Below, in pieces: positions 3-64,000 of a stretch of 64,000 nucleotides of DNA (its first letter is position 1; every line of letters begins with the position of its first letter). The stretch is from an uncultured Gemmatimonadaceae bacterium (lineage in GTDB: Bacteria; Gemmatimonadota; Gemmatimonadetes; Gemmatimonadales; Gemmatimonadaceae). The stretch spans positions 288,001-352,000 of the forward strand of contig CAWAGQ010000011.1 in assembly GCA_963781585.1 (NCBI GenBank), written 5' to 3'. The notes under the pieces were generated by a model. The model was given only the letters and a program-made list of their open reading frames with translations. It ran no database searches and was not told the DNA's origin. The position numbers were made by a program, and so were the translations under genes.

Positions 3-869
3 GGGATCGACTCGGTCTCGCCGCGGCTCGGTCGATTCGACTACCAGATGGCGAGCGTGGACTACTTCAGTGCGATGGGCACGCGCATCCTGCGCGGCCG
101 GTCGTTCACCAGCGCCGATGGTGCGGGCGCACCGCGCGTAGTGGTGGTGAGCCAGCAGATGGCCCGCGTGCTCTGGCCGGGGGAGGATGCCCTGGGCAGG
201 TGCATCCGCGTTGGCGCGGACACGATGCCCTGCACCACGGTGATTGGTGTCGCCGAGGATGCGGTGCACGATCCGGTGAAGGACGAGCCGATCCGGTACT
301 ATCTGCCGTTCGATCAGTTTCCGCAGGAGACCGGCGCGATGATGGTGCTGCGAATGCACGGGAATCCCGCGGCAGCCGTCGAGCCGGTGCGGCGCACCCT
401 GCAGGCGGTGATGCCCGGCCAGCAATATGTCACGGTCGACCCGATGGCGAAGATGCTGGCGGCGCAGCGCCGCTCGTGGCGCGTGGGCGCGACCATGTTC
501 GTGGCATTTGGCGCACTAGCGCTGCTGGTGGCGGCGGTCGGTCTCTACGCCGTGATTGCGTACAACGTCGCGCAACGGATGCACGAACTCGGTGTCCGGA
601 TCGCGTTAGGCGCCCGCGACAACGATGTGCTGCGGCTGGTGGTTGGCCAGGGTGCGCGGCTCGCCGCCGCCGGGGTGGCGGCCGGGAGCGCACTCGCGCT
701 CGCGGCGGGTCGGTGGGTCCAGCCCCTGCTGTTTCACCAGTCCGCAAAGGACCCCGTGGTGTTCGTTCTGGTGGGGATGATCCTGATCGCGGTGGCGCTG
801 GCCGCGAGCGCGGTGCCCGCGGCCAGGGCGATGCGTGCCGATCCGAACACGGTGTTGCGCACGGAGTAG
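3..869 (+). CDS. ABC-type (MacB/FtsX, ADOP-like) permease, C-terminal part; 5' end truncated by the window
   Basis: 'YFSAMGTRILRGRSF', 'VGLYAVIAYNVAQRMHELGVRIALGA' and C-terminal 'DPNTVLRTE' are typical of ADOP/FtsX permeases; the frame is open from position 3. Confidence 0.85.
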   Translation, partial: GIDSVSPRLGRFDYQMASVDYFSAMGTRILRGRSFTSADGAGAPRVVVVSQQMARVLWPGEDALGRCIRVGADTMPCTTVIGVAEDAVHDPVKDEPIRYYLPFDQFPQETGAMMVLRMHGNPAAAVEPVRRTLQAVMPGQQYVTVDPMAKMLAAQRRSWRVGATMFVAFGALALLVAAVGLYAVIAYNVAQRMHELGVRIALGARDNDVLRLVVGQGARLAAAGVAAGSALALAAGRWVQPLLFHQSAKDPVVFVLVGMILIAVALAASAVPAARAMRADPNTVLRTE

Positions 870-1050
870 GACACCTGGGTCGCACCCGTACCGCAGCGTC
901 GCCAACCCGGCGCGCGCGTGGGGAGGTCGAGATAGAAACTCCAGAAGCGGAGCACGCCGTTCGCCGTGAAGAACGCGAAGCCGAGCGCCCGGGCTCTCCA
1001 TCCCGAAAGCCACGACACCTGCGGCCGTCGATCGATCATCGCGATGTGAG

Positions 1051-3015
1051 TTACCCGCCCTGTGGGGGAAGCGCAAATGCCACGATTGCGTCGCCCTCTC
1101 CAAAAAGGTCGCCGCCGCCCGCTGCGATCACCACGTACTGGCGCCCTCCCGCCTGGTAGGTCATGGGAGTCGCCCGCGCCCCGGCTGGCAGGCTCGCGTG
1201 CCAGAGCTCGCGCCCGGACGCGGTCTCGAACGCGCGAATCTGACGGTCCAGCGTGGCGCCGATGAACGTGAGTCCGGTGGCCGTGACGATCGGCCCGCCC
1301 AGTCCGGGCGATCCGGTGGGGTGCTGCACCGCGGCACCGTCCGGCGTGGGGAGATCCCCCAATGGGACGCGCCAGCGGATCTGTCCCGTGGAGAGGTCCA
1401 CTCCCACCAGCAGACCGAAGGGTGGCGGGGAGCAGGGCAGTCCCGACGGCCCCTTGACCAGACGCCGGCGCATGACATAGGGGGTGCCGCGCATCCGGGT
1501 GTACTCGTAGCCCGGCTCGCGCCGGAACCCGGGCGCATCCACCTTCTCGTCAGGCATGAGTTGCACCTCGGCGATGAGGGTGTTCACCGGAATCACCGCC
1601 ATGGCGCGCGCGCTGTCGGCGGCAGCGCCACCCCACGCCGCGCCGCCGATATTGGACGGACGTACGAGCGTGCCGTGCGTGCTGGGCGGCGTGAAGATCG
1701 ATCCCATGCGCAGACTGCCCACCATCCGGCGACACGCTGCGCGGTCGGCGGGCGTCGGGCCCCAGATGCTGTCGGTGGTGAAGCCGTGGGGACTGAGCGG
1801 TGGCGTGACTGTCGGAAACGGCTGGGTGGGCCACGCCTGCTCGCCCGGGACGTCGCTCGCGCGTACCGGGCGCTCTTCGACCGGAAAGACAGGCGCACCG
1901 GTCTCGCGGTCCAGCACGTACAGCATCCCCGTCTTGGTCGCCTGAAGCACCGCCGGGATGGCGCGGCCGTCCTTGATGATCGTGACCAGGGTGGGCGGTG
2001 ATGCATTGTCGTAGTCCCAGAGGTCATGGTGCACCGTCTGGAAGCTCCACACCACGCGGCCGGTCGAGGCGCGAAGCGCGGTGATGGAATTGGCGTAGCG
2101 ATTGGCGCCCAGGCGTTCACCGCCGTAGTAGTCGGGAGCGGCGCTGCCGGTGGGCACGAACACGAGATCGCGCGCCGGATCGGCGACGATGATCGACCAG
2201 GCGTTGGCCGCCCCGGTGCGCGCCGCGGAGCCGTTCAGCCAGGTGGACACGGCCGAGTCGCCCGGGTCCTGCGGGATGGGGTCCCACGTCCAGCGGAGCG
2301 CGCCGGTTCGTGCGTCGAACCCGCGGACTTCGCCGCTTGCCGGCGCGAGCCGGCCGTTGTCGGCGATGGCCGAGCCGACGACGACCAGTCCGTTGATCAC
2401 CGCGGGCGGGGATGTTTCCTCGTACGCCGGCGGCTCGAACGGGGCGACGCGCAGGCCCGTGCGCAGATCGATCGCGCCGTGATCGCCGAAGGCGTCGCAC
2501 GGCGTGCCGGTGGCGCCGTCGATGGCGATGAGCCGGGCGTCGATGGTGGCGATGTAGATGGAGCGACGGCACGCGGCGCCGGCGCGTGCCGATGGATCGA
2601 GCCAGGTTGCAGCGCCGCGGTTGGTGAAGTCGCCGTAGCCCCCTTCGGGGTTCACGTGGCTGTCGTAGCGCCAGCGTTCCGCCCCGGTGGCGGGATCGAG
2701 CGCGATGACGCGACCGAGTGCGGTGGTGAGGTACATGGTGCCATCGACCACCAGGGGAGTCGTCTCCAGGGCCGGTGCGCGTCCCCGATCGGGGTGAATG
2801 CCCATCTCACCCGTGTGGAAGGTCCAGGCCACGTCAAGCCGGGCCACGTTGTCCGGGGTGATCTGGGTGAGTGGCGAGAAGCGGGCGCCGCCGGGATCGC
2901 CGCCGTAGACCGGCCAGTCACCTGGCCGATTCGGGTTCGCTGGTGCGGAGGGTGCGCACGCGCTGAGGAGCGCAATCGCGATTCCCGGTGCGAGGATGCT
3001 CGTTAGGTGGCGCAT
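1051..3015 (-). CDS. PQQ-dependent dehydrogenase (glucose/quinate/shikimate family), probable lipoprotein
   Basis: 'DWPVYGGD..G.RFSPLTQITPDNV', 'HHDLWDYD', 'ATPMTY' and W-repeat beta-propeller motifs; start re-assigned to ATG 3015 (MRHLTS...LLSAC lipobox). Confidence 0.88.
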   Translation of the reverse strand: MRHLTSILAPGIAIALLSACAPSAPANPNRPGDWPVYGGDPGGARFSPLTQITPDNVARLDVAWTFHTGEMGIHPDRGRAPALETTPLVVDGTMYLTTALGRVIALDPATGAERWRYDSHVNPEGGYGDFTNRGAATWLDPSARAGAACRRSIYIATIDARLIAIDGATGTPCDAFGDHGAIDLRTGLRVAPFEPPAYEETSPPAVINGLVVVGSAIADNGRLAPASGEVRGFDARTGALRWTWDPIPQDPGDSAVSTWLNGSAARTGAANAWSIIVADPARDLVFVPTGSAAPDYYGGERLGANRYANSITALRASTGRVVWSFQTVHHDLWDYDNASPPTLVTIIKDGRAIPAVLQATKTGMLYVLDRETGAPVFPVEERPVRASDVPGEQAWPTQPFPTVTPPLSPHGFTTDSIWGPTPADRAACRRMVGSLRMGSIFTPPSTHGTLVRPSNIGGAAWGGAAADSARAMAVIPVNTLIAEVQLMPDEKVDAPGFRREPGYEYTRMRGTPYVMRRRLVKGPSGLPCSPPPFGLLVGVDLSTGQIRWRVPLGDLPTPDGAAVQHPTGSPGLGGPIVTATGLTFIGATLDRQIRAFETASGRELWHASLPAGARATPMTYQAGGRQYVVIAAGGGDLFGEGDAIVAFALPPQGG

Positions 3016-3130
3016 GCGGGCTCCGAAGCGAGGGACGCGGAGGAGAATGGCGGTCGCGGCACGGCGACGCAAACGGGATGGGAGAAACGGGACCAGCATG
3101 GGACGACCGGGACACGGCGGGGACGACGTG

Positions 3131-3175
3131 GGAGGCAGTGGACGCAGTGGAGGCAGTGGAGGCAGTGGAGGCAGT
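3131..3175. repeat. 9-nt tandem repeat (GGAGGCAGT) x5, one copy degenerate
   Basis: Read directly; lies between two divergent genes. Confidence 0.9.
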
Positions 3176-3338: not shown

Positions 3339-6005
3339 ATGACCATTTTCAGACAGTTGCGCCGAAGGCTGTTCGGCCTGGTACGCCGGTCGCGCTTCGA
3401 GCGCGACATGTCGGACGAGATGTTGCATCACGTGTCGCTCGAGGCGGCGGATCGGATTGCGGCGGGCCTGACGGAAGGGGAGGCGCGGCGCCTGGCGCTG
3501 CGCGACTTCGGGGGTGTGGAGCGGTGGAAGGAGGAGGCGAGGGACGCCCGGGGTTTCGGTGGCTGGGACGCGTTCTGGCAGGACGCGCGTTATGCGCTGC
3601 GCGCCCTGAGGCGAGCGCCCGGGTTCGCCACGATCTCGGTGACCACGCTCGCGGTCGGCATCGGGGCAACGACAGCGGTCTTCGGCGTCATGAACGGGCT
3701 CCTGTTGCGGCCGCTCGAATACCGCGAGCCGGACCGCATTGTGCAACTTCTGTCGTACGATGCGGACGGAAGCGGCCGCGGCACCATCTCGGCCCCCGAC
3801 TACTACGACTGGATGCGGCAGTCCAGCGTGTTCGAGGCAGGCGCGCTCTACGACGAGTACAGTCCCACGCTGCTGATGGATGGCAGTGTGCGAAAGCTGG
3901 ACGCGGCGTCGGTGGGGGCTGGGTTCTTCGACGTCCTGGGCCTGCGGCCGGCGGTGGGGCGGTTCTTCCTGCCTGACGAGGATGCCGGCGGCGCCAACCG
4001 CGTGGTCCTGAGCTGGGGTCTGTGGCGCGACGCCTTCGGCGGCGATGCGGGCGTCGCAGGCCGGGTCATCAATCTGAGCGGCTTTCCGTACACCGTCGTG
4101 GGCGTGGCGCCCCGCATGGAGGAGCCCGGACTCTCGGGTGCGGGGTTCGGCGCGCCGCAACTCTGGCGGTCGACTCCGCAGTACTTCCGGAGGAGCGAGC
4201 GAGGGAGTCACTCGTTCACCGCGATTGCGCGGCTCAGAACGGGCGTCTCGCGCGAGGCGGCCGAGGCGTCGCTGGCGGCGATCGAGTCTCGTCTGGCGGA
4301 GACATTTCCGAGGGAAGACACCGGCCGCCGTGTCCGCGCGGCGTTGCTGACCGAGCAGATCGTGGGCGGTGTGCGGGGCGTGCTGTGGATGTTGCTGGCG
4401 GCGGTCGGCCTGGTGCTGCTCGCGTCATGTGCCAACGTGACCAATCTCCTCCTGTTCCGTGCCGCCGCACGCCGCCGCGAGATTGCCATGCGAACGGCGC
4501 TCGGCGCGTCCAGGTGTCGGGTGGTGCGTCAGCTCATGGTGGAGAGCCTCCTGTTGGCGCTGCTGGGCGCGGCGGGTGGTCTTGCGATCGCCGCTCTGTC
4601 CACGCGGTGGCTCGTATCGCTCGCTGCGGGCGAACTGCCTCGTGCCCAGTCGGTCGGCATGGACTACCGGGTGCTCACGTTTGCGCTGGTGGTCGCCTGC
4701 GGATCGGCGTTCGTGTTCGGCCTCCTCCCCGCGTGGCATACCGCGCGCGTGGACCTGCGCGCTGCGCTGGGCGGGGGACACGACACCGCGTCGCGTGGTC
4801 AGGGACGAGTGCGTCGGGCGGTTGTGGCGGCGCAGGTCGCCATGGCCGTGGTCGTCATGCTGGGGGCGGGTGTGCTGGGCCGCTCGTTGCTTCGGCTCGC
4901 GGCGGTCGATCCCGGCATCGTGGTGAGGCAGGTGCTCGCACTGCGCATCGATCCACCAGCGGATCCGTATGATCCGTCAACCGCCGCCGGCGAGACGGCG
5001 ACGCTGGGACTGTACGACCGACTCACGGAGCGGCTGGGCGCCCTGCCCGGTGTGCAGGCAGTGGGCATGACGGACCTCCTTCCGATGTCGGGAAGCTTCG
5101 ACGGGAACGGCTTCACCGTCGTCGGGCGTCCTGCGCCCGCGCCGGGTCATACGCCCTCGGAGGAGACGCGCGCCGTGAGTCCGGGGTACTTCCGCGCCAT
5201 GGGGATCCGCCTGATCTCCGGTCGCCTGCTGGAGCCGTCGGACAATGGCGCCGATACATCCGAGAACGTGGTGGTGGTCAACGAGGCCTTCGTGCGCCGG
5301 TACTTCCCGGGGGGCGGCGCGGTGGACGCGCACCTGCAGATCTTCGACGCGGATCCGCCACCGCGCATCGTGGGTGTGGTAGGTGACGTGGCGCAGTTCG
5401 CGCTGGATCAGGCGACCGAACCCGTGATCTATGTGCCCCAGTCACAAGCGCCGGTCTGGAAGCAGGACGAACCGTGGATCGTGCTGCGCACCACGACCGA
5501 TCCGGCGTCGCTCGCGGCGGCCGTGCGGGCGGTGATTCATGAGGTCGAACCACGGACGCCGGTCTATGCCACCCAGACGATGAAAGCGGTGGTTGATGCC
5601 ACGCTCGCGCGGCCCCGATTTCGCACCCTGCTCCTCCTCTCGTTTGCCGGGGTGGCCTTTCTGCTCGCGGCGATCGGCGTCTACGGCATGCTGGCCTACG
5701 CGGTGTCCGCGCAGATGCGCGAACTCGGTGTGCGGATGGCGATGGGCGCCGATGGCCGCCGCATTTTCGCGCACGTGATTGGCGAGGGCCTCAAGCCCGT
5801 CCTGCTCGGTGTCGCGATCGGGTTGATCGCCGGCTTCGGCGTCGTGCGTCTGCTGCGCGGTTTTCTATTCGGCGTGGGAGCGGCAGATCCCGTGACGTTT
5901 CTCGGGGTGCCGCTCGCACTCGCGACGGTCGCGCTGATCGCCGCGACGGGCCCTGCGTTGCGCGCGGTGCGCCTGTCGCCGACGACCGTGCTGCGGGGGG
6001 AATAG
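3339..6005 (+). CDS. ADOP-family duplicated ABC permease (MacB_PCD/FtsX x2)
   Basis: N-terminal permease-prefix 'ERDMSDEM..H...EARRLALRDFGG', 'DARYALRALRRAPGF', 'CANVTNLLL..RRREIAMR.ALGA', second FtsX domain; 888 aa. Confidence 0.92.
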   Translation: MTIFRQLRRRLFGLVRRSRFERDMSDEMLHHVSLEAADRIAAGLTEGEARRLALRDFGGVERWKEEARDARGFGGWDAFWQDARYALRALRRAPGFATISVTTLAVGIGATTAVFGVMNGLLLRPLEYREPDRIVQLLSYDADGSGRGTISAPDYYDWMRQSSVFEAGALYDEYSPTLLMDGSVRKLDAASVGAGFFDVLGLRPAVGRFFLPDEDAGGANRVVLSWGLWRDAFGGDAGVAGRVINLSGFPYTVVGVAPRMEEPGLSGAGFGAPQLWRSTPQYFRRSERGSHSFTAIARLRTGVSREAAEASLAAIESRLAETFPREDTGRRVRAALLTEQIVGGVRGVLWMLLAAVGLVLLASCANVTNLLLFRAAARRREIAMRTALGASRCRVVRQLMVESLLLALLGAAGGLAIAALSTRWLVSLAAGELPRAQSVGMDYRVLTFALVVACGSAFVFGLLPAWHTARVDLRAALGGGHDTASRGQGRVRRAVVAAQVAMAVVVMLGAGVLGRSLLRLAAVDPGIVVRQVLALRIDPPADPYDPSTAAGETATLGLYDRLTERLGALPGVQAVGMTDLLPMSGSFDGNGFTVVGRPAPAPGHTPSEETRAVSPGYFRAMGIRLISGRLLEPSDNGADTSENVVVVNEAFVRRYFPGGGAVDAHLQIFDADPPPRIVGVVGDVAQFALDQATEPVIYVPQSQAPVWKQDEPWIVLRTTTDPASLAAAVRAVIHEVEPRTPVYATQTMKAVVDATLARPRFRTLLLLSFAGVAFLLAAIGVYGMLAYAVSAQMRELGVRMAMGADGRRIFAHVIGEGLKPVLLGVAIGLIAGFGVVRLLRGFLFGVGAADPVTFLGVPLALATVALIAATGPALRAVRLSPTTVLRGE

Positions 6006-6163: not shown

Positions 6164-6652
6164 TCAGTTGAACCCATGCGACCTGCGCAGGCGTCGGTAC
6201 TCGAGCCAGGTGATACCGATGACGAACAGGTCGAGTGCGGAGAGCGCGAGCAGCCCGAGCGACTTGGTGTGGGTGTAGCGGTATAGTTGGTATAGAAGGA
6301 AGAGCAGGAAGGCGACGATGGCCCACCGATAGGCCCGGGCCTTCCGTCGTAACAGGGCGGCGACCAGTGCGACTTTGATTACGCCGTGGACGACCAGGTA
6401 CACGGCGCCGAACAGTTGGGTACTGGCGGACAGGTGCGCCGACGCCTGGAGGAGGATCCGTGCCAGAGCGTCTCGCGGGTCTTCGCTGAGCTCGTGCTGC
6501 GTCAACGTCGCTACGATGCCGGTGATCTGCGACCGGGTGAGGGCAACCAGGAGTACGCCGCCGGCGATCTCCAGTGCGCCGTCGATGCCTTTGACGACGA
6601 CACCGATGTCGAACAGGACGTGGACGAGTTCTCCGCGCCGGCGAATGGTCAC
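6164..6652 (-). CDS. DUF2127-like membrane protein
   Basis: 'KGIDGALEIAGG', 'HELSEDP.D', 'YLVVHGVIK', 'YQLYRY' with 4 predicted TM segments. Confidence 0.75.
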   Translation of the reverse strand: MTIRRRGELVHVLFDIGVVVKGIDGALEIAGGVLLVALTRSQITGIVATLTQHELSEDPRDALARILLQASAHLSASTQLFGAVYLVVHGVIKVALVAALLRRKARAYRWAIVAFLLFLLYQLYRYTHTKSLGLLALSALDLFVIGITWLEYRRLRRSHGFN

Positions 6653-6787: not shown

Positions 6788-7303
6788 ATGTCTCCACCAC
6801 CCAGACGGCGGCGCCCCAGGCGAAAGGCGAAGCCCAGGCGCCGCGTTCCCGAACATTCGTCGGTTCCGACTGGCCGGGCGGCGTATGCCGATACGCGCGC
6901 CTGGCTTCTCGCTGAGCACGGCCCGGTCTGCGCCTACTGCGGGCACACGTACACCCCGCGCTCGCTGACCCTCGACCATGTCGCCCCGCGCAAGGGACAG
7001 TCTGCGTACGACCGACGCGACAACCTCGTCCTCGCCTGCAAGCGCTGCAACACGGCGAAGGCCGACAAGCCGTTTCTCGTCTTCCTGCTGGCGCAGCGGA
7101 CGCGCGCCGAGCGGCTGCTCCGCTATGGCCAGCACCTGAGCAAGGGGATTCTGGACATCCTGCGCCACATGGCGCCTGACGTGATCGTCGAACCGAAGGC
7201 AAATGCGCAGGCGCAGCACGCGGGTCACCGGCCCGCCAAACGACACAAGTACGGTGACAGCGACGATTCTCCGTACCGGGACGACTCGCCGTACAGGACA
7301 TAG
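6788..7303 (+). CDS. HNH endonuclease family protein
   Basis: 'CAYC...LTLDHV.P.....DNLVLACKRCN' zinc-finger HNH (H-N-N) signature. Confidence 0.85.
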   Translation: MSPPPRRRRPRRKAKPRRRVPEHSSVPTGRAAYADTRAWLLAEHGPVCAYCGHTYTPRSLTLDHVAPRKGQSAYDRRDNLVLACKRCNTAKADKPFLVFLLAQRTRAERLLRYGQHLSKGILDILRHMAPDVIVEPKANAQAQHAGHRPAKRHKYGDSDDSPYRDDSPYRT

Positions 7304-7519
7304 AGCGTCAGCAGGCCAAAGACCACACCTCACCGACTGCCCCAGGTCTACACCGGGCTGATCTGCAAAGTCCCCGAGCGCACCGCCGCAGCCGTATATA
7401 TCATCACTGTCATCGCGGCTTCGACTGGTGCCGAGGCCGCTGCGACTGGGAATGGCGACGCAGGCAGTCTGTTCCCGACATCGGCGTTAGGCGGGCCCGA
7501 CCACATGATCACTCATCAT

Positions 7520-9438: not shown

Positions 9439-9446
9439 CCGGAAGC

Positions 9447-10055
9447 CTAACGAGAATCGTTGTCCGTGGCCGACAACGTGTGCCCGGCCCGGCCGGCATC
9501 TCCGGCGCGCGATGCGGCAGCACGCCAGTCCCGGCGCAGCAGCGCATACCGCGCCACGTCTTCGAACCGCCCGTTCTTCAGGAGGTATTCGCGGTGCACG
9601 CCCTCGAGCGCCAGGCCCGACTTCTGCATGACCCGGCCTGACGCGGGGTTGCGCGTCAAATACATGGCCTGAATGCGGTTCAGGTCGAGTCGCTCGAACC
9701 CCAGGGCGATGACGGCATGTGTCGCTTCGGTCGCGAGACCGCGTCCCCAGAACGGAACGCCGATCCAGTACCCGAGCTCGGCCCGCCGATGCGCCGCCGT
9801 CAGCGTGAGGCTGATGGCTCCCACCAGCGCCCCGTCCATCGTGACGGCGTAGCTGGCCAGCTCGCCCACCTCCCAGCCCGGAGCGTGGGTGGCGATCCAG
9901 AGCGGGGCCGCACCTCGGGGATACGGATGGGGAATGGTCAGGGTGGTATCGGCCACCTCGAAGGCGCCGGCCATCCGCTCCACGGCGGGAGCATCGGCGG
10001 GCGCGAACGGGCGCAGCGTCAGGCGGTCGGTGGTGAGAATGGGCTGCGGAAACAT
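9447..10055 (-). CDS. GNAT family N-acetyltransferase (RimJ/RimL type)
   Basis: 'TDRLTLRP', 'AELGYWIG..FWGRGLATEA', 'NPASGRVMQKSG'. Confidence 0.9.
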   Translation of the reverse strand: MFPQPILTTDRLTLRPFAPADAPAVERMAGAFEVADTTLTIPHPYPRGAAPLWIATHAPGWEVGELASYAVTMDGALVGAISLTLTAAHRRAELGYWIGVPFWGRGLATEATHAVIALGFERLDLNRIQAMYLTRNPASGRVMQKSGLALEGVHREYLLKNGRFEDVARYALLRRDWRAAASRAGDAGRAGHTLSATDNDSR

Positions 10056-10962: not shown

Positions 10963-13245
10963 ATGCGTGTGTTTCGCCTTTTCGTGCTCGCACTCTGCGC
11001 CATCGGTCTGCCGGGAGCCCCGGCTGCCCACGCGCAGCAACGGCTCGATCCGTCACTGATTACGGTGGAGCGGATCTACAACTCCCCGGACTTCTTCCCC
11101 GAATCCTTCGGCCCCACACGCTGGCTGGATGACAGCAGCTATACGGCCGTCGAGCCGGCCGCCAACGGGAACGGTTCGAATCTAGTCCGCTTCGACGCGG
11201 CCACGGGTCGGGCCACGGTTCTGGTGACGGCGGCCCGGCTGGTTCCGGCCGGCGCCCGTGAGCCGCTCGACCTCGACGACTACTTCTGGTCCGCCGATCA
11301 TTCCCGCCTCCTCATCTTCACCAATTCCCAGCGCGTATGGCGCGCCAACACCCGTGGTGACTTCTGGGTGCTGGATCTCTCCTCCGGGCGCCTGAAGAAA
11401 CTGGGCGGCCCCGACGCGAAGCCGTCCACGCTGCAATTCGCGAAATTCTCGCCCGACGGCAAGCGCGTGGCCTACCTGCGCGAGCACAATCTCTACGTGG
11501 AGTCGGTCGATGACGGCGCGATCGTTCCGCTCACCACCGACGGATCGACGACGATCATCAACGGGACGTTCGACTGGGTCTACGAGGAAGAACTCAGCCA
11601 GCGCGATGGGTTCCGGTGGAGCCCGGATGGGACGCAGATCGCCTACTGGCAGCTCGACGCGAGCGGCGTGCGCGACTTCCTGCTGATCGACAACACCGAT
11701 TCCCTCTACTCGTTCGTGAAGCCCGTGCAGTATCCCAAGGCGGGAACGACCAACTCGGCGGCGCGGATCGGCGTGGTGCGCGCCGGCGGCGGGCCGACCC
11801 GGTGGCTCGACATCCCCGGCGATCCGCGGCAGAACTATCTGGCGCGAATGGAATGGGCCGGCGGGTCGGACGAAGTCGCGATCGAACAGCTCAACCGGCG
11901 GCAGACGGTCAACACGCTCTGGTTCGCCGATGCGAAGACCGGACACGCCCGCAGCGTGCTGGTGGACCAGGACAGCGCGTGGATCGACATCTACGACGAC
12001 TATGTGGACTGGGGCCCCGGGCCCGCGCTGCACTGGTTCGACGACGGCAAGGCGTTCATGTGGCTCAGCGAGCGCGACGGATGGCGCCACGCCTACCTGG
12101 TGAATCGCGACGGCACGATGCATCTGGTCACCAAAGGTCCGTACGACGTGATGAAAGTGGCGCACGTGGACAGGCAGGGCGGGTGGCTCTACTACTACGC
12201 GTCGCCTGACGACGCGACCCGCATGTTTCTCTGGCGCATCCGTCTCGACGGCTCCGGCGCGCCCCAGCGCCTAACGCCTGACTCGGCGCGGGGGAATCAC
12301 GAGTATGACATCTCCCCGGGTGGGAGCTGGGCGATCCACTCCTGGTCGTCATGGGGCACGCCCGGGATTACCGACCTGGTCAAGCTGCCCGACCATACCG
12401 TCACGCGCACCCTCGTGTCGAATGCCGCGCTCGTCACCCGGCTCTCCGCGCTGAAACAGGGGCCAGTGGAGTTCTTCAAGGTCGACATCGGCGACGGTAT
12501 CGCGCTCGATGGCTGGATGATGAAGCCGCCGGATTTCGACCCCGCGAAGAAGTACCCGGTCCTGTTCTACGTGTACGGGGAACCGGCCGATCAGACTGTG
12601 CGCGACGAGTACGACGGCCCCACATGGCTCTGGCACCTGATGCTGACGCAGCAGGGGTACATCGTGGCCAGCGTGGACAACCGGGGTACCCCGGCCCCCA
12701 AGGGACGCGCCTGGCGCAAGGCGCCGCACAACCAGATGGGCGCGCTGCGGGTGCGGGAACAATCGGCGGCTGCGCGCATCATCGGCCGCCGCCCGTACGT
12801 CGACTCCACACGCTTCGGCGTGTGGGGGTGGAGCGGAGGCGGCTCGTCGACCCTGCTCCTCATGTTCCGCGCGCCTGATGTGTACAAGGTGGGCATGGCC
12901 GTGGCGCCGGTGGCCGATGTCCACAACTACGACACGATCTACCAGGAACGATACGTGGGTCTTCCGCAGACGGACTCCGCCGCCTATCGCGACGCCTCGG
13001 CCCTCTACTTTGCCGGCGGATTGCGCGGCGACCTGCTGGTGGTCCACGGGTCAGGGGACGACAACGTGCACTATCAGGGGACCGAACAACTCATCAACGC
13101 CCTGGTGGCGCGCAACAAGCCGTTCACCATGATGGAGTATCCAAACCGGACGCATGGTATCTTCGAAGGGCGCAATACGCGGACCCATCTCTTCAACCTC
13201 CTGACGAGATTCCTGCACGAGCATCTTCCCGCGGGGCCGCGCTGA
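10963..13245 (+). CDS. Dipeptidyl peptidase IV (S9B), secreted
   Basis: Signal peptide, 'NG.FDWVYEEE', 'YPKAG', nucleophile 'GWSGGG', 'DDNVH', 'YPNRTH'; start ATG 10963. Confidence 0.93.
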   Translation: MRVFRLFVLALCAIGLPGAPAAHAQQRLDPSLITVERIYNSPDFFPESFGPTRWLDDSSYTAVEPAANGNGSNLVRFDAATGRATVLVTAARLVPAGAREPLDLDDYFWSADHSRLLIFTNSQRVWRANTRGDFWVLDLSSGRLKKLGGPDAKPSTLQFAKFSPDGKRVAYLREHNLYVESVDDGAIVPLTTDGSTTIINGTFDWVYEEELSQRDGFRWSPDGTQIAYWQLDASGVRDFLLIDNTDSLYSFVKPVQYPKAGTTNSAARIGVVRAGGGPTRWLDIPGDPRQNYLARMEWAGGSDEVAIEQLNRRQTVNTLWFADAKTGHARSVLVDQDSAWIDIYDDYVDWGPGPALHWFDDGKAFMWLSERDGWRHAYLVNRDGTMHLVTKGPYDVMKVAHVDRQGGWLYYYASPDDATRMFLWRIRLDGSGAPQRLTPDSARGNHEYDISPGGSWAIHSWSSWGTPGITDLVKLPDHTVTRTLVSNAALVTRLSALKQGPVEFFKVDIGDGIALDGWMMKPPDFDPAKKYPVLFYVYGEPADQTVRDEYDGPTWLWHLMLTQQGYIVASVDNRGTPAPKGRAWRKAPHNQMGALRVREQSAAARIIGRRPYVDSTRFGVWGWSGGGSSTLLLMFRAPDVYKVGMAVAPVADVHNYDTIYQERYVGLPQTDSAAYRDASALYFAGGLRGDLLVVHGSGDDNVHYQGTEQLINALVARNKPFTMMEYPNRTHGIFEGRNTRTHLFNLLTRFLHEHLPAGPR

Positions 13246-53248: not shown

Positions 53249-53274
53249 GAGCCTAACGCCGAAGCGGGACCCAT

Positions 53275-56269: not shown

Positions 56270-58882
56270 ATGCACACGACGGGACCCACCGTGACACCGC
56301 GCACGCTCGCCGGCGTCGCCGCGCCAATCGCGCTTCTGGTCATGCTCGCCTGCGGCGGAGGCGACAAAGCCGCCGGGCCGGGCGGTGTGAGCGTGGTCGA
56401 GATCACGTCGCCAGGCACGTCGCTGCAGGTTGGCGCCACGCTGGCGCTGACCGTGCGCTACTACGACGCCGCGCACACGCAACTCAGTGGGAAATCGGTC
56501 ACGTTCTCGTCGTCGAATACGGCGGTGGCGACGGTCAGCAGCGTGGGAGTGGTCAGCGGGGTGACCCCCGGCTCGGTCACGATCAGCGCCGACGTGGAGG
56601 GAACCGGCGGCACGATAACGCTGAGCGTGGTCCCGGTGCCGGTGGCGTCGATCGTCATCACGCCGGCCAAGCCCGCGGTGCGCGAAGGCGAGATGATCAC
56701 CCTCACCGGTCAGCCGGTGGATGTGGTAGGGCGACCGCTGTCCGGACACACGGTGAGCTGGTCGAGCGCCAACCCGGCGATGGCGACGGTGGACCCGTCG
56801 GGGGGCGTGGTGACCGGGATCACCCCGGGGTCGGTGTACATCCGCGCCGAGACCGAGGGGAGACGCGACAGCGTCAGCCTGCGGGTAAAGAGCCTGAACG
56901 CGCCGGTCATCACCGCCAGCGACCCGGCGCTGATCGTGCCCGGAATCACCGGCACCGTCACCGGGACCAATTTCGGCGCCACGCCTAACGACAACGAGGT
57001 CCTGGTCAACGGCGTGTCGGCCGTGGTCACCGCCGCCTCGCCCACCAGCGTGTCGTTCACCGTCCCGGCCGCCATCGCGCTGCCCTGTACCCCTACCGGC
57101 CCGGTTCCGGTATCGCTCGTCGCCAACGCCGATACCGCCACCGTGGCCATGGCGCTCCAGATGGCCACCCCCCGCACCCTGGCGCTGGGCGAGTCGCTCC
57201 TGCTCACCAGCCAGACGGATCTGTCCTGCAACGAGTTCGCGGCCACCGGTGGCCGCTACCTCATCACCGCCTTCAACTACGCGACCAACGGCGGCGTCCG
57301 CACCTCATTCGAGTTGCTCGGCGCCAGTACGGCTCCGGCGGCGATGCAACCGGCGGCGACAGGCGCGCGCCTCGACCCGCTGGCCACCACCGGCGCCCGC
57401 CTCGTCCTGCCGACCACGTCCGGCCTGCAGGCAGACGAGGATCCCCTCACCCGGCATCTGCGCGCGCACCTCGCCTTCAGGCAGCGGGATCAGGAGATGG
57501 CGCGGCGCCTGGGGAATCCGCGCCTGCGGGAGAGGATGCAACAGCGCGCGGCTCAGCCGAACGTGGCCTTCGCCGTGAATCCGCCGCCACCGGTGGGCAG
57601 CATGGTGACCTACCGCATGCCACGCACGCTCGGAAACTACGATACCTACGACAACGTACAATTTCGCGTGGTCTATGTGGGCTCCAGGATCATCATCTTC
57701 GAAGACGTGGGGGCGCCGCTCGCTCACACCATGGATTCCGAGTACCAGCGCATGGGCCAGGAATTCGACCAGGTGACCTGGCCGATCCTGCAGAACTTCG
57801 GCAATCCGCTCGTGGTGGACTCCGCGCTCGACAACAACGGCCACCTGATCGCGCTCTTCTCTCCACGCGTGAACAACTACACAGTCGCCGGTCTGTCCAA
57901 TCAGGTCCTCGGATACGTGACCCTCTGCGACTTCTTCACGCAGGCCGAGTGTGCCGCGAGCAACGAGGCCGAGGCGTTCTATGCGCTGGTCCCCAACCCC
58001 AACGGCGGCGGCTACTCGATCAGCACGTGGCGGCGATACATGCGCTCCACCCTGGCGCACGAGTCGAAGCACATCACGTCCTACGCCGAGCGGTATTACC
58101 GCGACGCCGACGTGAGCCAGCTCGAGGAAACCTGGCTCGAGGAGGCGACGGCGCAGGCATCGAGCGAGATCTGGGCGCGCCAGATGTATCACCACCAGGA
58201 ATTCGACGACATCGGCTGGGCCGATGGCCCGCTCTGCGACTACGCGCCCGACTCCGCCACCTGCCCCGATCCGGCCGAAGGGATCCTGCATCATTTCGGG
58301 TTTCTCTACGACCACTACGACGCCCTCGAGACCAAGTCGATTCTCGACGACCCCAACGGCGTCGAGGACCCGGTGATCTACGGGAGTTCGTGGTCGTTCG
58401 TGCGGTGGATCGCCGACACCTACGGCCCCGACGAGGGGACGTTCTTCCGCTCGATCGTGCAGGTGAAGAACGACCACGGCGTGCCGAACATCGAATCCAA
58501 GACGGGGCGGTCATTCTCGGAGCTGCTCGGGCTGTGGTCGCTGGCCTCGCTGGCCGACAACTATCCCGGTGGCACAATCAACGATCAGCGGCTGAAACTC
58601 CGCAGCTGGAACAGCCGTGACCTGTTCGCCGAAATGAGCGCCAACCTCACGTACGTCGGAGGCGGGACTCCCTTCCCCAAACCGTGGCCGCTGGCGGTGC
58701 GCGAGGTGAACTTCGGCACCTTCTCCACCAGTCAGCAGATGGTGTCGCAGCTGCGCGGGGGCGGCTTCGCGGCGTGGGACGTCTCCGGGGTGGAGGCGGC
58801 GCCCCAGGTACTGGCCATCCGCAACGTCAATGGCGGTCTTCCCCCGGCGTTGATCGGCATGGCGATCGTGCGGGTGCAATGA
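56270..58882 (+). CDS. Lipoprotein with 2 Big_2 domains, an IPT/TIG domain and a zincin (M30-like) metalloprotease domain
   Basis: Lipobox 'MLAC', two 'SS.N..VATV' Ig repeats, 'GTNF', 'TLAHESKH...E.TWLEE..A'. Confidence 0.75.
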   Translation: MHTTGPTVTPRTLAGVAAPIALLVMLACGGGDKAAGPGGVSVVEITSPGTSLQVGATLALTVRYYDAAHTQLSGKSVTFSSSNTAVATVSSVGVVSGVTPGSVTISADVEGTGGTITLSVVPVPVASIVITPAKPAVREGEMITLTGQPVDVVGRPLSGHTVSWSSANPAMATVDPSGGVVTGITPGSVYIRAETEGRRDSVSLRVKSLNAPVITASDPALIVPGITGTVTGTNFGATPNDNEVLVNGVSAVVTAASPTSVSFTVPAAIALPCTPTGPVPVSLVANADTATVAMALQMATPRTLALGESLLLTSQTDLSCNEFAATGGRYLITAFNYATNGGVRTSFELLGASTAPAAMQPAATGARLDPLATTGARLVLPTTSGLQADEDPLTRHLRAHLAFRQRDQEMARRLGNPRLRERMQQRAAQPNVAFAVNPPPPVGSMVTYRMPRTLGNYDTYDNVQFRVVYVGSRIIIFEDVGAPLAHTMDSEYQRMGQEFDQVTWPILQNFGNPLVVDSALDNNGHLIALFSPRVNNYTVAGLSNQVLGYVTLCDFFTQAECAASNEAEAFYALVPNPNGGGYSISTWRRYMRSTLAHESKHITSYAERYYRDADVSQLEETWLEEATAQASSEIWARQMYHHQEFDDIGWADGPLCDYAPDSATCPDPAEGILHHFGFLYDHYDALETKSILDDPNGVEDPVIYGSSWSFVRWIADTYGPDEGTFFRSIVQVKNDHGVPNIESKTGRSFSELLGLWSLASLADNYPGGTINDQRLKLRSWNSRDLFAEMSANLTYVGGGTPFPKPWPLAVREVNFGTFSTSQQMVSQLRGGGFAAWDVSGVEAAPQVLAIRNVNGGLPPALIGMAIVRVQ

Positions 58883-59493
58883 ACCAGACGCTGTCCGCCT
58901 CGCTTCGCTCCATTCCGCTGGCGCTCACCATCTTCCGGATCTGCTCGGCGCCGGTGCTGGTGGTACTGGCCGGCATGGGCAAGGATCGCTTCTTCCTGTG
59001 GCTCGCGGTCGCGGCGCTGCTGAGCGACGCGATCGATGGGACGATCGCGCGCCGCCTCGGTGCCGCGTCCGAGACCGGACGCCTGCTCGACAGCTGGGCC
59101 GATCTGCTGATCGCCCTGACCGCGTTCGTGGGCGCGACGCTGCTCTGGCCGGTGACGATGCGTCAGGAGGCGTACTTCTTCGCCCTCGCGCTGGCGGCGC
59201 TGGTGCTGCCTAACGCCTACGCGCTCGTCCGGTTCCGCCGGTTGCTGGGCTATCACACCATGTCGGCCAAGGCATCGGGGGTGCTGCTGAGCGTCGGTGC
59301 GGTGCTCATGTTCGTCGGCATCTCACCGCTCCTGTTCCGGGTTGCCGCCGTGCTCGAGGCGTGCGTCGCCTGCGAGTACGTCGTCATCTCCCTGCTGGTT
59401 CCGGAGTGGACGGGCGAGATCAAGTCGGTGTGGCACGCGTGGCGAATGCGGAGTGGTGCCGCACGCAGCTCTCAGCTGACGGCCGGCGGCTGA
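58879..59493 (+). CDS. CDP-alcohol phosphatidyltransferase family protein
   Basis: Signature 'DAIDGTIARR......GRLLDSWAD'; ATGA overlap with the upstream gene. Confidence 0.9.
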   Translation: MNQTLSASLRSIPLALTIFRICSAPVLVVLAGMGKDRFFLWLAVAALLSDAIDGTIARRLGAASETGRLLDSWADLLIALTAFVGATLLWPVTMRQEAYFFALALAALVLPNAYALVRFRRLLGYHTMSAKASGVLLSVGAVLMFVGISPLLFRVAAVLEACVACEYVVISLLVPEWTGEIKSVWHAWRMRSGAARSSQLTAGG

Positions 59494-60532: not shown

Positions 60533-62113
60533 ATGTCGCGACCGTCCCTCCCCCTGCTGTTTGCCCTGCTCACCTCCGTCGCGTCCACGGTCGCGGCCCA
60601 GCGGCGCGATGCCTTCGTGCTCCTGGTCGGCAATGACACGATCGCCGTCGAGCGATTCGTGCGATCGTCGACTCGGCTCGAGTCCGAATTGCTGTTCCGG
60701 GCCCAGAATGGACGCTTCACGTTCTCGGCGACCCTCAACCCCGACGGCACCGTCTCGCGGCTCGACAACGCCTATCGCAGCGCCGACGCGGACCGGACCG
60801 GTCCGCCCGCCCAGTCCGCCGTTTTCCACTTCGTCGGCGACAGCGCCATCGTCGACATCACGACCGGTGGACGCGTCGTGACCCAGCGCCTCAAGAGTGT
60901 CGAAGGTGCCATCCCGTTCATCAACCCGTCGTTCGCGCTCATGGAGCTCGTGCTGGCGCGCGCACGCCGGCTCGGCGGCGATAGCGTGGCCGTGCCCGCG
61001 TTCGCGGTGCAGGGCGGACAGGTCATCACCTTTACGGTGACCCATCTCGACGGCGATTCGGTGGCCATAGGGGCATCCAATGCGTCGATGCACGTCGCGG
61101 TGAACGCGGGTTCGGACATTCTCGGTGGCGTAGTAGCCGCACAGGGGCTCCGGATCGTCCGCGTGCGAAACGCCCCCGAGTCGGGGCTCACGGTGGCCCC
61201 GCGCGACTACTCCGCGCCGCCCGACGCTTCTTACACCGCCGAAGAGGTGGCTATCCCGACCACGGCCGGTTTCACGCTCGCGGGGACGCTCACCCTTCCG
61301 AAGGACGCCCCGCGGCCGCTGGCGGCCCTGGTGACGATCACTGGCAGCGGACTCCAGGATCGCGACGAGTCGCTCCCGATCGTAGCCGGCTACGGTCTCT
61401 TTCGGCAGATCGCGGACACACTCTCACGGCACGGGATCGCCGTGTTGCGGATGGACGATCGAGGGTATGGCGCCTCCGGCGGTAATGCCGCGCGCGCGAC
61501 ATCGGCCGACTTCGCCGACGACATCCGGTCGGCGCTCACCTACCTGCGCGGGCGCGCCGACATGGACGGGCGCCGCCTCGGACTCATCGGTCACAGCGAG
61601 GGAGGGATCATCGCGCCCATGATCGCCGCCACCGACGCGTCGCTGCGCGGCATCGTCATCATGGCGGGCCCGTCGTGGACAGGGCGCCGCATCATCCAGT
61701 ACCAGAACCGCTACCTCCTCGAGCAATCTCCCGACGTGGTGCCCGCGCAGCGTGATTCGCTTCTTGCCCTGTCCATGCACACCGTGGACTCGACCTCGGC
61801 GGGACAGCCGTGGATGCGGTATTTCCTCGCGTACGACCCGCTGGTCGCCGCGCGCAAGGTGCGCGTGCCGGTGCTCATTCTCCAGGGGGCGACGGATCGC
61901 CAGGTCACCGCCGAGCAGGCCCCGGAGCTGGCGGCCGCCATCCGGTCCGGCGGAAACAGCGACGTCACGCTCCAGGTCTTCCCGAACACGGATCATCTCT
62001 TCCTCGCCGATTCCACCGGGAATCCGCTGGAATACGCCAGGCTCGACACGCACACCGTCCGGAGCGAGGTTCTGGGCGCGGTGGTGACCTGGGTGCAGAA
62101 GCACTTTCGCTGA
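60533..62113 (+). CDS. Secreted alpha/beta hydrolase
   Basis: Signal peptide, 'LAGTLTLP', 'GSG.QDRD', 'DDRG.G.S', nucleophile 'GHSEGG', 'QG..D.QV', 'HLF'. Confidence 0.88.
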   Translation: MSRPSLPLLFALLTSVASTVAAQRRDAFVLLVGNDTIAVERFVRSSTRLESELLFRAQNGRFTFSATLNPDGTVSRLDNAYRSADADRTGPPAQSAVFHFVGDSAIVDITTGGRVVTQRLKSVEGAIPFINPSFALMELVLARARRLGGDSVAVPAFAVQGGQVITFTVTHLDGDSVAIGASNASMHVAVNAGSDILGGVVAAQGLRIVRVRNAPESGLTVAPRDYSAPPDASYTAEEVAIPTTAGFTLAGTLTLPKDAPRPLAALVTITGSGLQDRDESLPIVAGYGLFRQIADTLSRHGIAVLRMDDRGYGASGGNAARATSADFADDIRSALTYLRGRADMDGRRLGLIGHSEGGIIAPMIAATDASLRGIVIMAGPSWTGRRIIQYQNRYLLEQSPDVVPAQRDSLLALSMHTVDSTSAGQPWMRYFLAYDPLVAARKVRVPVLILQGATDRQVTAEQAPELAAAIRSGGNSDVTLQVFPNTDHLFLADSTGNPLEYARLDTHTVRSEVLGAVVTWVQKHFR

Positions 62114-62868: not shown

Positions 62869-63678
62869 TTGCCCAAACGCTCGAAGACGCCGCGCAAGAG
62901 CGCCGCTCCGAAGCCCTCCAACGTCGTCGCCGCGGCTCGTGCCGGGAAGGCGCCGCGCAAGTCGACCACGACGCCGTGGGAGCACGTCAAAGGGATCGGG
63001 AGCGCGATCCTGATCTTTCTCTTTCTGCGCACCTTTTTCATCGAGGCCTATCGCATCCCGTCGGGGAGCATGATTCCCACGCTCCTCATCGGCGACTGGT
63101 TGTTCGTGAACAAGCTCGTGTACGGACCCCACATTCCGTTCACGCGGATCAACCTCCCCGGCTACTCGGAGCCGCATCGGTATCAGGTCGCGGTGTTCGT
63201 GTCCCCCCCCCAGTCCGATCAGCCGGACGACCCCACGCCGATACTGGTGAAGCGCATCATCGGGTTGCCGGGGGATACGCTCTACATGCGCGGCGGGAAG
63301 TTGTACGTGAACGGCATCGAGCAGCGTCAGGGATACGGCGCGCAGTCGGAGCCGGGGACGCCGCCCGACTACTACGACCCGCTGTTCAGCTGGCAGGCGC
63401 GGATCGCGCTTCACAACACGCGCTTCGGATCTGCGCCCGAGCATCCCCAGGTCGACGACTGGGGGCCGCTCCTGATTCCGGCGCGGCATTATTTCATGAT
63501 GGGAGACAACCGGTACCAGTCGAAGGACAGCCGCTACTGGGGGGTGGTGCCGCGGGAGAATTTCCGTGGGCGGCCACTGTTTGTGTATTACTCGTTTGTG
63601 CCCTCGAACGAGAGTGACCGACCGCTGTCGTTCATCACCGACATTCGGTGGCGGCGGCTGGGGCACTGGATCCGCTGA
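62869..63678 (+). CDS. lepB: Signal peptidase I
   Basis: 'IPSGSM.PTL.IGD.LFVNK', 'VKRIIGLPGD', 'YFMMGDNR..S.DSRYWG'; start uncertain (TTG 62869 proposed). Confidence 0.92.
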   Translation: MPKRSKTPRKSAAPKPSNVVAAARAGKAPRKSTTTPWEHVKGIGSAILIFLFLRTFFIEAYRIPSGSMIPTLLIGDWLFVNKLVYGPHIPFTRINLPGYSEPHRYQVAVFVSPPQSDQPDDPTPILVKRIIGLPGDTLYMRGGKLYVNGIEQRQGYGAQSEPGTPPDYYDPLFSWQARIALHNTRFGSAPEHPQVDDWGPLLIPARHYFMMGDNRYQSKDSRYWGVVPRENFRGRPLFVYYSFVPSNESDRPLSFITDIRWRRLGHWIR

Positions 63679-63689
63679 AACTCCGGCGG

Positions 63690-63784
63690 ACAGCTGTCCG
63701 CTTCAAGCCAGTAGCTGACCGCTGCTAGCTGGTGACTGACCGCCGTTCGCTGGCCGCTGATGTTGACCGCTGAACGCTGACAAC
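63690..63784. repeat. Degenerate heptamer family B, mostly reverse orientation (CTGAYNG-like)
   Basis: ctgaccg ctgctag ctggtga ctgaccg ccgttcg ctggccg ctgatgt ... ctgaacg ctgacaa. Confidence 0.7.
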
Positions 63785-63802
63785 CATTCCTGGAGGTGCC
63801 TC

Positions 63803-64000
63803 GTGCGCATGGGAATCGTGCTTCCTCTCGTCCTGGCCGGCGGAGTTTCGTTAGGCTGGGCGGTGGCCAGGGCCACGCCGGCGCAGCAGGGTGGCGCCAT
63901 CACCGAGACGGTCAACGGCATCACCTACCACATGCCCTACGGCCGGCCCACCCGTCCGTTCACGCCGGCCGTGCAGGTCGGCAATCTCCTCTTCCTGTCG
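63803..64000 (+). CDS. RidA/YjgF family protein with signal peptide; 3' end truncated by the window; absent from the ORF track
   Basis: SD GGAGG and GTG 63803; translates MRMGIVLPLVLAGGVSLGWAVARATPAQQ...RPFTPAVQVGNLLFLS, matching the RidA 'P.S.AV..G..LF.SG' start. Confidence 0.75.
   Translation, partial: MRMGIVLPLVLAGGVSLGWAVARATPAQQGGAITETVNGITYHMPYGRPTRPFTPAVQVGNLLFLS

Follow-up and report, generated by a model that had tools for sequence, protein, structure and literature searches.

The window analyzed here is a stretch of 64,000 nt (positions 288,001 to 352,000 of contig CAWAGQ010000011.1, assembly GCA_963781585.1) from an uncultured bacterium of the family Gemmatimonadaceae. Its genes, 34 of which were called by third-codon-position GC content (GC3) and named with Pfam and NCBIfam, with four open reading frames (ORFs) added, are of ordinary chromosomal types, namely permeases, a resistance-nodulation-division (RND) efflux operon, kinases, peptidases, and glycosyltransferases. 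Dispersed through and between them is the non-palindromic octamer GCCTAACG, which differs from its own reverse complement CGTTAGGC and has an A/T core, thus running counter to the composition of this 68% GC DNA. An exact count in this one window of one assembly, to which all counts of the word refer, returned 21 copies, 15 reading as GCCTAACG and six as CGTTAGGC on the forward strand, i.e., about 1 per 3 kb, and bore out every coordinate and strand given in an earlier reading made without database searches (the sequence-only reading). The word is real and has accumulated by a word-specific fixation bias; it is not explained by base composition, by codon usage, by the peptides encoded, or by a repeat element.

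Models of composition and codon usage fall far short of this count. In 100 dinucleotide-preserving shuffles the mean was 0.77 copies and the largest number 3, and Markov models of orders 1–3 predict 0.42–0.95 copies against the 21 observed. Synonymous codons were also swapped among positions with the same amino acid, leaving all proteins and the overall codon pool unchanged. The count averaged 3.48 with a maximum of 6 in 300 runs, and averaged 2.48 in 400 runs with one extra ORF piece; since these means contain 2–3 non-coding copies that codon shuffling leaves untouched, about 0.5 coding copies are expected against the 18–19 found (18 plus one stop codon), and the ratio of observed to expected in this codon-aware comparison is not near 1. 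When all 8-mers of the window were scored de novo, GCCTAACG was the top outlier (log10 P of –26.8). No base beyond the eight is conserved within 20 bases on either side of the copies, and the sub-words are almost confined to the full word (CCTAAC 24 copies, GCCTAA 23, CTAACG 23), so the unit is a sharp 8-mer and not the core of a longer repeat. Likewise, 21 of the 33 occurrences of CTAA and TTAG on the forward strand lie within the word, in keeping with the earlier observation that it holds most of these tetramers. The spacing of the copies is a little more regular than random (coefficient of variation, CV, 0.71; P = 0.07). A repeat element of the repetitive extragenic palindrome (REP) or miniature inverted-repeat transposable element (MITE) kind was ruled out, as there are no conserved flanks or paired arms and no repeat family in the window contains the word. 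Scans of the window with Rfam and for tRNAs found no family and no tRNA gene covering it, so that no RNA gene explains it. A near-mode search of a plasmid collection with positions 1–25000 of the window gave no match. The titles of the literature string matches listed for the two strings all appear incidental (primers, oligonucleotides), and among the papers listed by our literature searches there was no report of GCCTAACG as a genomic signal and none of such a word in Gemmatimonadota.

By codon context, the copies comprise 11 that read xCG-TTA-GGC, six that read G-CCT-AAC-G, one that reads GC-CTA-ACG, one that supplies a TAG stop, and two that are non-coding (7485 and 30620; Table 1). The sequence-only reading had the first, third, and fourth of these classes right, but gave five Pro-Asn and three non-coding copies; the copy at 59208 is in fact coding. 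TTA occurs only 15 times in about 17,700 codons of the window, 11 times inside the word and once more in a one-mismatch copy, and is therefore not equally common outside it. The same choice is visible in two neighboring ATPases: the Walker A motif at 45411 is written with CCT-AAC and that of the adjacent ATPase is GGT-CCC-AAC-GGC at 45763, a contrast correctly described in the sequence-only reading. Among sites at which the word could be written without altering the protein, it is carried by 11 of 53 in the frame [S/P/T/A]-Leu-Gly, by six of 12 in x-Pro-Asn-[G/A/V/D/E], by one of 27 in [S/C/R/G]-Leu-Thr, and by none of 34 in Val-Arg, i.e., the GTT-AGG frame, which has the same sense as the TTA frame and is never used. 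Where the flanking bases already match, Leu is coded by TTA at 11 of 29 sites versus 4 of 1775 elsewhere (odds ratio about 270), Pro by CCT at 6 of 10 sites versus 39 of 972 elsewhere (odds ratio 36), and CTA is used at one of 8 sites (odds ratio 26). The bias thus raises the odds of the word by a factor of about 20 to 300 relative to local codon usage (natural log 3.0–5.7); a model with a single uniform odds multiplier was rejected, as it fits every frame except that of TTA. This bias acts on both strands relative to the genes, in coding and in non-coding DNA, and it respects the proteins, operating at wobble positions and through the six-fold choice of Leu codons at pre-existing peptides.

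Near matches are rewarded where the protein bars the exact word, and the bias grades with similarity to the word. One-mismatch words number 54 against 44–47 expected, a total close to expectation because most neighbors are plain background; the three such copies listed in the sequence-only reading (3001, 26325, and 29753) all exist within this larger and mostly background set. The neighbor GCCTGACG has 18 copies against 6.6 expected, with none of 400 codon-preserving shuffles reaching 18, and by codon-preserving shuffle GCCTATCG has six copies against 2.45 expected (P = 0.005), ACCTAACG two against 0.10, and GCATAACG three against 0.78. At Pro-Asp sites with matching context, CCT is used in 7 of 15, forming G-CCT-GAC-G, and two near copies are of the form xCG-TCA-GGC, with Ser coded by the rare TCA. 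In the two phases where the exact word would be a stop codon, GCC-TAT-CGx is found at five of 6 sites and CGT-TAT-GCx at three of 3, so that TAT, which makes up 23% of Tyr codons overall, occupies 8 of 9 stop-phase Tyr sites and is preferred to TAC in both phases; moreover, at the CGT-TAT-GCx sites the rare CGT occurs only paired with TAT, the two co-varying as a unit. The C-for-T neighbor GCCCAACG, the only one from which a synonymous transition yields the word in the two frames in use, has no copy against 3.5 expected (P = 0.03, codon-preserving shuffle). Its 7-mers are also scarce (CCCAACG three against 8–12 expected, GCCCAAC four against 7–10).

Table 1. Exact copies of GCCTAACG/CGTTAGGC and near copies in the window, with strand of the copy, codon context, and gene (gene strand in parentheses).
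Class	Position	Strand	Codon context or location	Gene or remark
Exact	604..611	-	GCG-TTA-GGC (Ala-Leu-Gly)	FtsX/ADOP-type permease fragment 3-869(+)
Exact	7485..7492	-	non-coding, 12 nt 5' of start codon	gene 7505-8812(+)
Exact	9445..9452	+	gives TAG stop (9447-9449)	GNAT acetyltransferase 9447-10055(-)
Exact	12269..12276	+	CGC-CTA-ACG (Arg-Leu-Thr), sole copy in this phase	DPP-IV/S9 peptidase 10189-13245(+)
Exact	19970..19977	+	GCG-TTA-GGC	Ser/Thr kinase-TPR 18359-21469(-)
Exact	20987..20994	+	TCG-TTA-GGC	Ser/Thr kinase-TPR 18359-21469(-)
Exact	22036..22043	+	GCG-TTA-GGC	DUF4403 21616-23256(-)
Exact	24706..24713	-	GCG-TTA-GGC	CHAD domain 23982-25532(+)
Exact	26120..26127	-	TCG-TTA-GGC	glycosyltransferase 25576-26691(+)
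Exact	26975..26982	+	GCG-TTA-GGC	glycosyltransferase 26843-28054(-)
Exact	30620..30627	+	non-coding, about 100 nt downstream of gene, outside any terminator-like hairpin	type IV pilin-like 30727-31230(-)
Exact	36552..36559	+	GTG-CCT-AAC-GGG (Val-Pro-Asn-Gly)	RND adaptor 35701-36870(+)
Exact	41842..41849	+	ACG-TTA-GGC	pyridoxal phosphate (PLP)-dependent decarboxylase 41005-42495(-)
Exact	42972..42979	+	GCG-CCT-AAC-GGG	ORF 42949-43365(+), gene call uncertain, no family match
Exact	44863..44870	+	TCG-TTA-GGC	ABC ATPase 44602-45540(-)
Exact	45411..45418	-	GGG-CCT-AAC-GGT (Walker A Gly-Pro-Asn-Gly)	ABC ATPase 44602-45540(-)
Exact	51935..51942	+	GAG-CCT-AAC-GCG	816-aa protein 50355-52805(+)
Exact	53251..53258	+	GCG-TTA-GGC	ORF 52876-53274(-)
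Exact	56983..56990	+	ACG-CCT-AAC-GAC	Big_2/TIG domains 56270-58882(+)
Exact	59208..59215	+	CTG-CCT-AAC-GCC	ORF 58684-59493(+), weak CDP-alcohol phosphatidyltransferase similarity
Exact	63849..63856	-	TCG-TTA-GGC	ORF 63803 to window end (+)
Near, GCCTGACG	1548..1555	-	G-CCT-GAC-G (Pro-Asp)	rare CCT
Near, GCCTGACG	3971..3978	+	G-CCT-GAC-G (Pro-Asp)	
Near, GCCTGACG	7174..7181	+	G-CCT-GAC-G (Pro-Asp)	
Near, GCCTGACG	12204..12211	+	G-CCT-GAC-G (Pro-Asp)	
Near, GCCTGACG	20182..20189	-	G-CCT-GAC-G (Pro-Asp)	
Near, GCCTGACG	30118..30125	-	G-CCT-GAC-G (Pro-Asp)	
Near, GCCTGACG	41187..41194	-	G-CCT-GAC-G (Pro-Asp)	
Near	9636..9643	+	GCG-TCA-GGC	in gene, Ser by rare TCA
Near	17459..17466	+	GCG-TCA-GGC	in gene, Ser by rare TCA
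Near	6327..6334	-	GCC-TAT-CGG	phase where exact word gives TAA stop
Near	12982..12989	+	GCC-TAT-CGC	stop phase
Near	29763..29770	-	GCC-TAT-CGC	stop phase
Near	60770..60777	+	GCC-TAT-CGC	stop phase
Near	63046..63053	+	GCC-TAT-CGC	stop phase
Near	3588..3595	-	CGT-TAT-GCG	phase where exact word gives TAG stop
Near	17409..17416	+	CGT-TAT-GCC	stop phase
Near	46515..46522	-	CGT-TAT-GCA	stop phase
Near, GCCTAACA	29753..29760	+	CTG-TTA-GGC	one of just 4 TTA codons outside the exact word

A search with the AcrB-type protein of the efflux operon (36882-40058) in a collection of species-representative genomes found 85 relatives, of which 80 loci (1,133,495 bases) were kept; nearly all are Gemmatimonadales/Gemmatimonadaceae metagenome-assembled genomes (MAGs) with 52–74% AcrB identity, and none is from the window's own genome. 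Together they hold three copies of GCCTAACG (in L022, L053, and L073) versus 8–17 expected from their own composition, and when all 8-mers were scored de novo in the 36 loci that measure 14 kb or more, none went beyond a log10 P of about –7.5 and no comparable outlier word appeared. In a large protein collection, the 816-aa protein (50355-52805) has a cluster of its own with two members and a single contig (444,479 bases), and the relative that follows stands at 73%. The source lineage is an isolated branch represented by one assembly. Five of the 21 copies, those with aligned relatives, could be compared by codon with orthologs. At 36552, Pro-Asn is present in 68 of 70 aligned relatives, with CCG, CCC, or CCA in 67 and CCT in one (L012, where the full word is absent); at 41842, all 14 aligned relatives have Leu-Gly, coded by CTC, CTT, or CTG; at 44863, five orthologs have x-Leu-Gly with CTC or CTG; at 45411, five have Gly-Pro-Asn-Gly with CCC or CCG; and at 51935, the 16 fetched relatives read Leu, Val, or Ile-Asn, with Pro-Asn found in 36 of the best 40 database homologs, the window's own protein counted. 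The relatives with Leu-Gly do not use TTG at these sites. Conservation at orthologous synonymous sites, on which the sequence-only reading had proposed to judge the word, is thus seen at none of the five, no relative carrying the word there, though these relatives are distant. That the relatives share the peptides but write them with other codons indicates that the peptides are old and the word new, and the comparison suggests that the word is lineage-specific, having probably arisen after the split from all sampled relatives. One of these loci, L065 (a Gemmatimonas phototrophica MAG), has a word of its own, CAGGGGCA, with 14 copies in 23 kb against two expected; it is G-rich and asymmetric in the style of the polar signals discussed below, and unrelated to the octamer of the window.

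Given its presence on both strands relative to the genes, its writing of conserved peptides with near-unused codons, and the enrichment of near words where the exact one is barred, GCCTAACG is a DNA-level signal and not a by-product of peptide, RNA, or codon usage; the codon shuffles, the frame counts, the codons of the orthologs, and the near-match pattern all support the sequence-only reading in this regard. An off-frame 'hidden stop' role was rejected by reasoning, as any TAA or TAG would do and the exact 8-mer would be left unexplained.

As to the cause, a drive acting at each site fits best, because the strongest codon avoidance must be beaten at many independent sites. Biased DNA uptake followed by recombination is a known process of this kind, and by analogy with the DNA uptake sequences (DUS) of Neisseriaceae and the uptake signal sequences (USS) of Pasteurellaceae, jointly termed DUES, we tentatively regard an uptake/recombination drive as the leading candidate, in which GCCTAACG may work like an uptake sequence. 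In such a scheme, a competence machine would have a putative DNA receptor, at the cell surface or in the periplasm, with a preference for fragments bearing the word, recombination of these fragments would spread new copies through the population, and the word would thereby become a tag of own-species DNA. The resemblances are several: the word is short, non-palindromic, hyper-abundant, and present in both orientations; many of its copies lie within genes, with stop frames avoided and a strong frame bias; and its mismatched forms are also over-represented. Like the USS, whose core is GC-rich in the AT-rich Haemophilus, it opposes the composition of its genome. For uptake sequences, mismatched forms are described as over-represented, with no chromosome-wide orientation bias, and in H. 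influenzae most copies are in ORFs (PMC1939737, available text); stop-containing frames are described as avoided, with a strong reading-frame bias, in the accessible part of a preprint on uptake sequences (bioRxiv 10.1101/2025.10.24.684340). The natural log of the odds multiplier given above is comparable to the 2Nes of the DUS, a scaled advantage put by estimate at about 4 (PMC2397512, available part).

Several observations weigh against such a drive. The word is not shared by the 80 related loci and no dialect of it was seen among them, with the limit that the nearest relative has only 73–74% protein identity. The frame with TTA is favored about 10-fold beyond what a uniform bias predicts, and the 15:6 strand ratio leans toward polarity (corrected P = 0.066). 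Unlike the known uptake sequences, which are of 9–12 bp with flanking signals and occur about once per kb, GCCTAACG has 8 bp, no flanking signal, and a lower density, and it is found in another phylum in which no competence has been described; natural transformation is not reported for Gemmatimonadota among the papers listed by our literature search, none of which mentions the phylum. Terminators hold about half of the uptake sequences known, often in the form of inverted pairs (bioRxiv 10.1101/2025.10.24.684340, accessible part); here none of the 21 copies forms an inverted pair (the nearest opposite pair is 548 bp apart), only 2–3 of the 21 are non-coding, and the copy tested (30620) is not in a hairpin or terminator. 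No competence or receptor gene was shown in the window, and family scans of its proteins gave no candidate reader of the word. As a sign of uptake machinery, the type IV pilin-like gene (30727-31230, reverse strand) lends weak support; its product has one Cys pair, matches only the generic pilin N-terminus, and resembles an ordinary major pilin.

Among the alternatives to an uptake drive, the one that survives best, while still unlikely, is that GCCTAACG is the binding site of an abundant nucleoid or chromosome-organizing protein, selected at many positions and with no role in uptake or repair, in the manner proposed by likeness to the highly iterated palindrome 1 (HIP1). HIP1 (GCGATCGC) is a cyanobacterial octamer that is 15- to 300-fold over-represented and lies within ORFs, with a reported periodicity of 10–90 kb and a function unsolved after decades (PMC5861425, available text). 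GCCTAACG is likewise an octamer over-represented tens- to hundreds-fold, i.e., within the HIP1 range, with copies inside ORFs; the rewarded near matches fit a graded protein affinity, and the spacing, slightly more even than random, is also in line with such a role. However, HIP1 is a palindrome, common to most of a phylum and conserved at orthologous sites between genomes (PMC5861425, as far as available), whereas GCCTAACG is asymmetric, is not enriched in the 80 related loci, and is conserved at orthologous sites in no relative examined, distant as these are. Nor was a candidate binding protein found in the window. A further likeness is the co-occurrence with short tandem heptamer arrays, in the window and in relatives, for in cyanobacteria HIP1 is paired with the short tandemly repeated repetitive (STRR) heptamers, which the arrays of the window resemble.

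These 7-bp arrays are intergenic, lie at gene ends in both orientations (18124-18280, 23241-23368, 30290-30367, 40069-40217, and 56118-56147), and have as units AGGCCAG, AAGGCCA, or CATGGGC-CAAAGGT, in up to 21.6 copies. The remaining over-represented words of the window (GGCCAAAGG, AGGCCAGAGG) come from these arrays, which are unrelated to the octamer. Among the related loci, comparable arrays occur in L066 (4064-4147, 6690-6812, and 7612-7738) and L037 (15426-15610 and 16804-16942), and also in L017, L018, L020, L022, L028, and L008, with lineage-specific units such as GGAACTC, GAAGAGT, AATAGCC, GCTATCG, AGTCGCC, and others; counting periods of 7, 14, or 21, there are 80 arrays in 39 of the 80 loci, those of period 21 being mostly coding. 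Heptamer arrays with fast-changing units may thus be a trait of the order.

A polar signal, of which one strand is read by a translocating RecBCD/AddAB or FtsK and whose co-orientation with replication is kept by selection, appears improbable. The sites of this kind are Chi, the FtsK orienting polar sequences (KOPS), and the architecture imparting sequences (AIMS). Chi and KOPS are G-rich and built of common codons. In favor of such a signal, GCCTAACG is asymmetric, as are Chi sites (5–8 nt), its density of about 1 per 3 kb is near that of E. coli Chi, and 15 of its 21 copies share one orientation, which prevails in genes of both strands (6:4 in forward and 7:1 in reverse genes). The available part of PMC3384302 describes KOPS and the SpoIIIE recognition sequences (SRS) as asymmetric octamers spread along the chromosome, which GCCTAACG also is. 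For the strand ratio itself, a two-sided binomial test gives P of about 0.08, and once gene strand and frame opportunities are corrected for, the forward orientation has 13 of the 18 coding copies against 9.5 expected (one-sided P = 0.066), which is not significant and agrees with the judgment of the sequence-only reading that 15:6 is too weak for polarity. After correction for gene orientation, four-fold sites show a GC skew of +0.097 over 1–40 kb and –0.068 over 40–64 kb, and its gene-by-gene cumulative sum peaks near 41 kb, beside the longest heptamer array; this switch could be due to a terminus or origin of replication, to the edge of an inversion, or to chance alone, and no convincing AT-rich site resembling the known dif pattern was found in the region. 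The word does not flip there (8:4 to the left, 7:2 to the right), which argues against a Chi- or KOPS-like signal if the switch reflects replication or inversion. Moreover, its codon-aware enrichment of about 40-fold and its use of the rarest codons far exceed what is known of Chi and KOPS, being an order of magnitude stronger than for Chi; its skew is only 71%, versus above about 80%, converging on dif, for KOPS and AIMS; it is not G-rich; and its density is several-fold above that of KOPS. The family scan found no recBCD, addAB, or ftsK in the window, which says little. The word matches none of the known DUS/USS, Chi, KOPS, and HIP1 sequences, as the sequence-only reading had stated.

More doubtful still is an origin as a by-product of modification or repair, in which an orphan methyltransferase with a repair akin to very-short-patch (VSP) repair, or a context-specific deamination hotspot, would convert neighboring words into GCCTAACG. 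In favor of this, GCCCAACG is missing, and in 17 of the 18 coding copies the position by which it differs from the word is the wobble base of a codon; a link between a hyper-abundant word and a methyltransferase has also been proposed for HIP1 (PMC4390886, available part). Against this, the pool of one-step precursors is much too small, with about 3.5 GCCCAACG expected versus 21 copies of the word; to reach TTA from the CTC or CTG of the relatives takes two changes at each of 11 copies, with TTG unused at these sites; and the CGT-TAT pairs co-vary as a unit. VSP-type repair, furthermore, drives T to C, i.e., in the opposite direction, and the family scans found no methyltransferase or Vsr-like gene in the window.

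That the word is an artefact of sequencing, polishing, or assembly (e.g., of miscalls at a modified base), or was planted, is highly improbable. Only one contig of the lineage is known, neither an independent assembly nor a close relative was found, and the absence of GCCCAACG is as a complete C-to-T miscall would give; yet the copies, if re-read as GCCCAACG, would still exceed expectation about 6-fold, and that reading calls for a TTG share of 38% at sites where its share is 7% in the genome and nil in the relatives. A miscall or blind implant would also place in-frame stops in a third of coding cases, and there are none, the single TAG being a normal gene end; random planting with regard to codons would fill the open frames 53:34:27:12, against the 11:0:1:6 observed. 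Neither the halo of Pro-Asp and Tyr near matches nor the co-varying CGT-TAT pairs are patterns of single miscalls, and the genes are intact and the assembly shows no noise. Selection at the level of the peptide, of the mRNA, or of TTA as a codon, for example a regulatory role for TTA in a constant context as with bldA, has equally little to commend it: it would suit the 11 of 18 coding copies that present CGUUAGGC in the mRNA, the extra favor shown to the TTA frame, and the 11 of 15 TTA codons in this context, but seven coding copies have the opposite sense, two are non-coding and one is a stop, the Leu-Gly and Pro-Asn peptides are common to relatives without these codons, and the word in the same sense in the other open frame (GTT-AGG) is found at 0 of 34 sites.

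Some further features of the window lie outside this argument. The gene for a Big_2/DUF1565 β-helix protein (7505-8812) has at its start a 57-bp tandem duplication (7519-7631; 96% identical), and a 1.4-kb stretch at 13985-15418 is without an ORF of coding GC3 or a family match, with 36-bp and 48-bp tandem duplications at 14286-14452. A stand-alone HNH protein of 171 aa (6788-7303) has an HNH domain closest to that of RNA-guided nucleases of the IscB/Cas9d type, at a level well under the family cut-offs; neither a RuvC part nor a guide RNA was seen. A pair of ABC ATPase genes in divergent arrangement (44602-45540 on the reverse and about 45663-46557 on the forward strand) adjoins, within 44602-50162, a gene for a 1233-aa fusion of an ABC-2 permease and an M1 peptidase domain.

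Hyper-abundant genomic words are rare, and the known ones have opened fields, viz., uptake specificity (DUS/USS), recombination control (Chi), and segregation (KOPS), with HIP1 still unsolved. GCCTAACG belongs to this known kind, but the member itself, its asymmetry, its phylum, and its apparently recent origin are new: the phylum is little studied and for the most part uncultured, and the word overrides the most disfavored codons. Codon usage in the source lineage is locally set by a DNA word, which bears on gene finding, measures of codon adaptation, and tests for horizontal transfer. The word would point to an unrecognized DNA-reading protein and could serve as a species tag in metagenomes, and its recent origin, with sampled relatives that do not have the signal, offers a handle on how such signals arise. 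It is conceivable, if doubtful, that this is the first uptake-type 'self' tag outside the two proteobacterial families known to have them, in which case this Gemmatimonadota lineage would be transformable through a receptor unrelated to ComP, or else a new asymmetric HIP1-like word with a reader of its own. If so, a word that arose after the split from the sampled relatives would be a young case of how uptake tagging is born.

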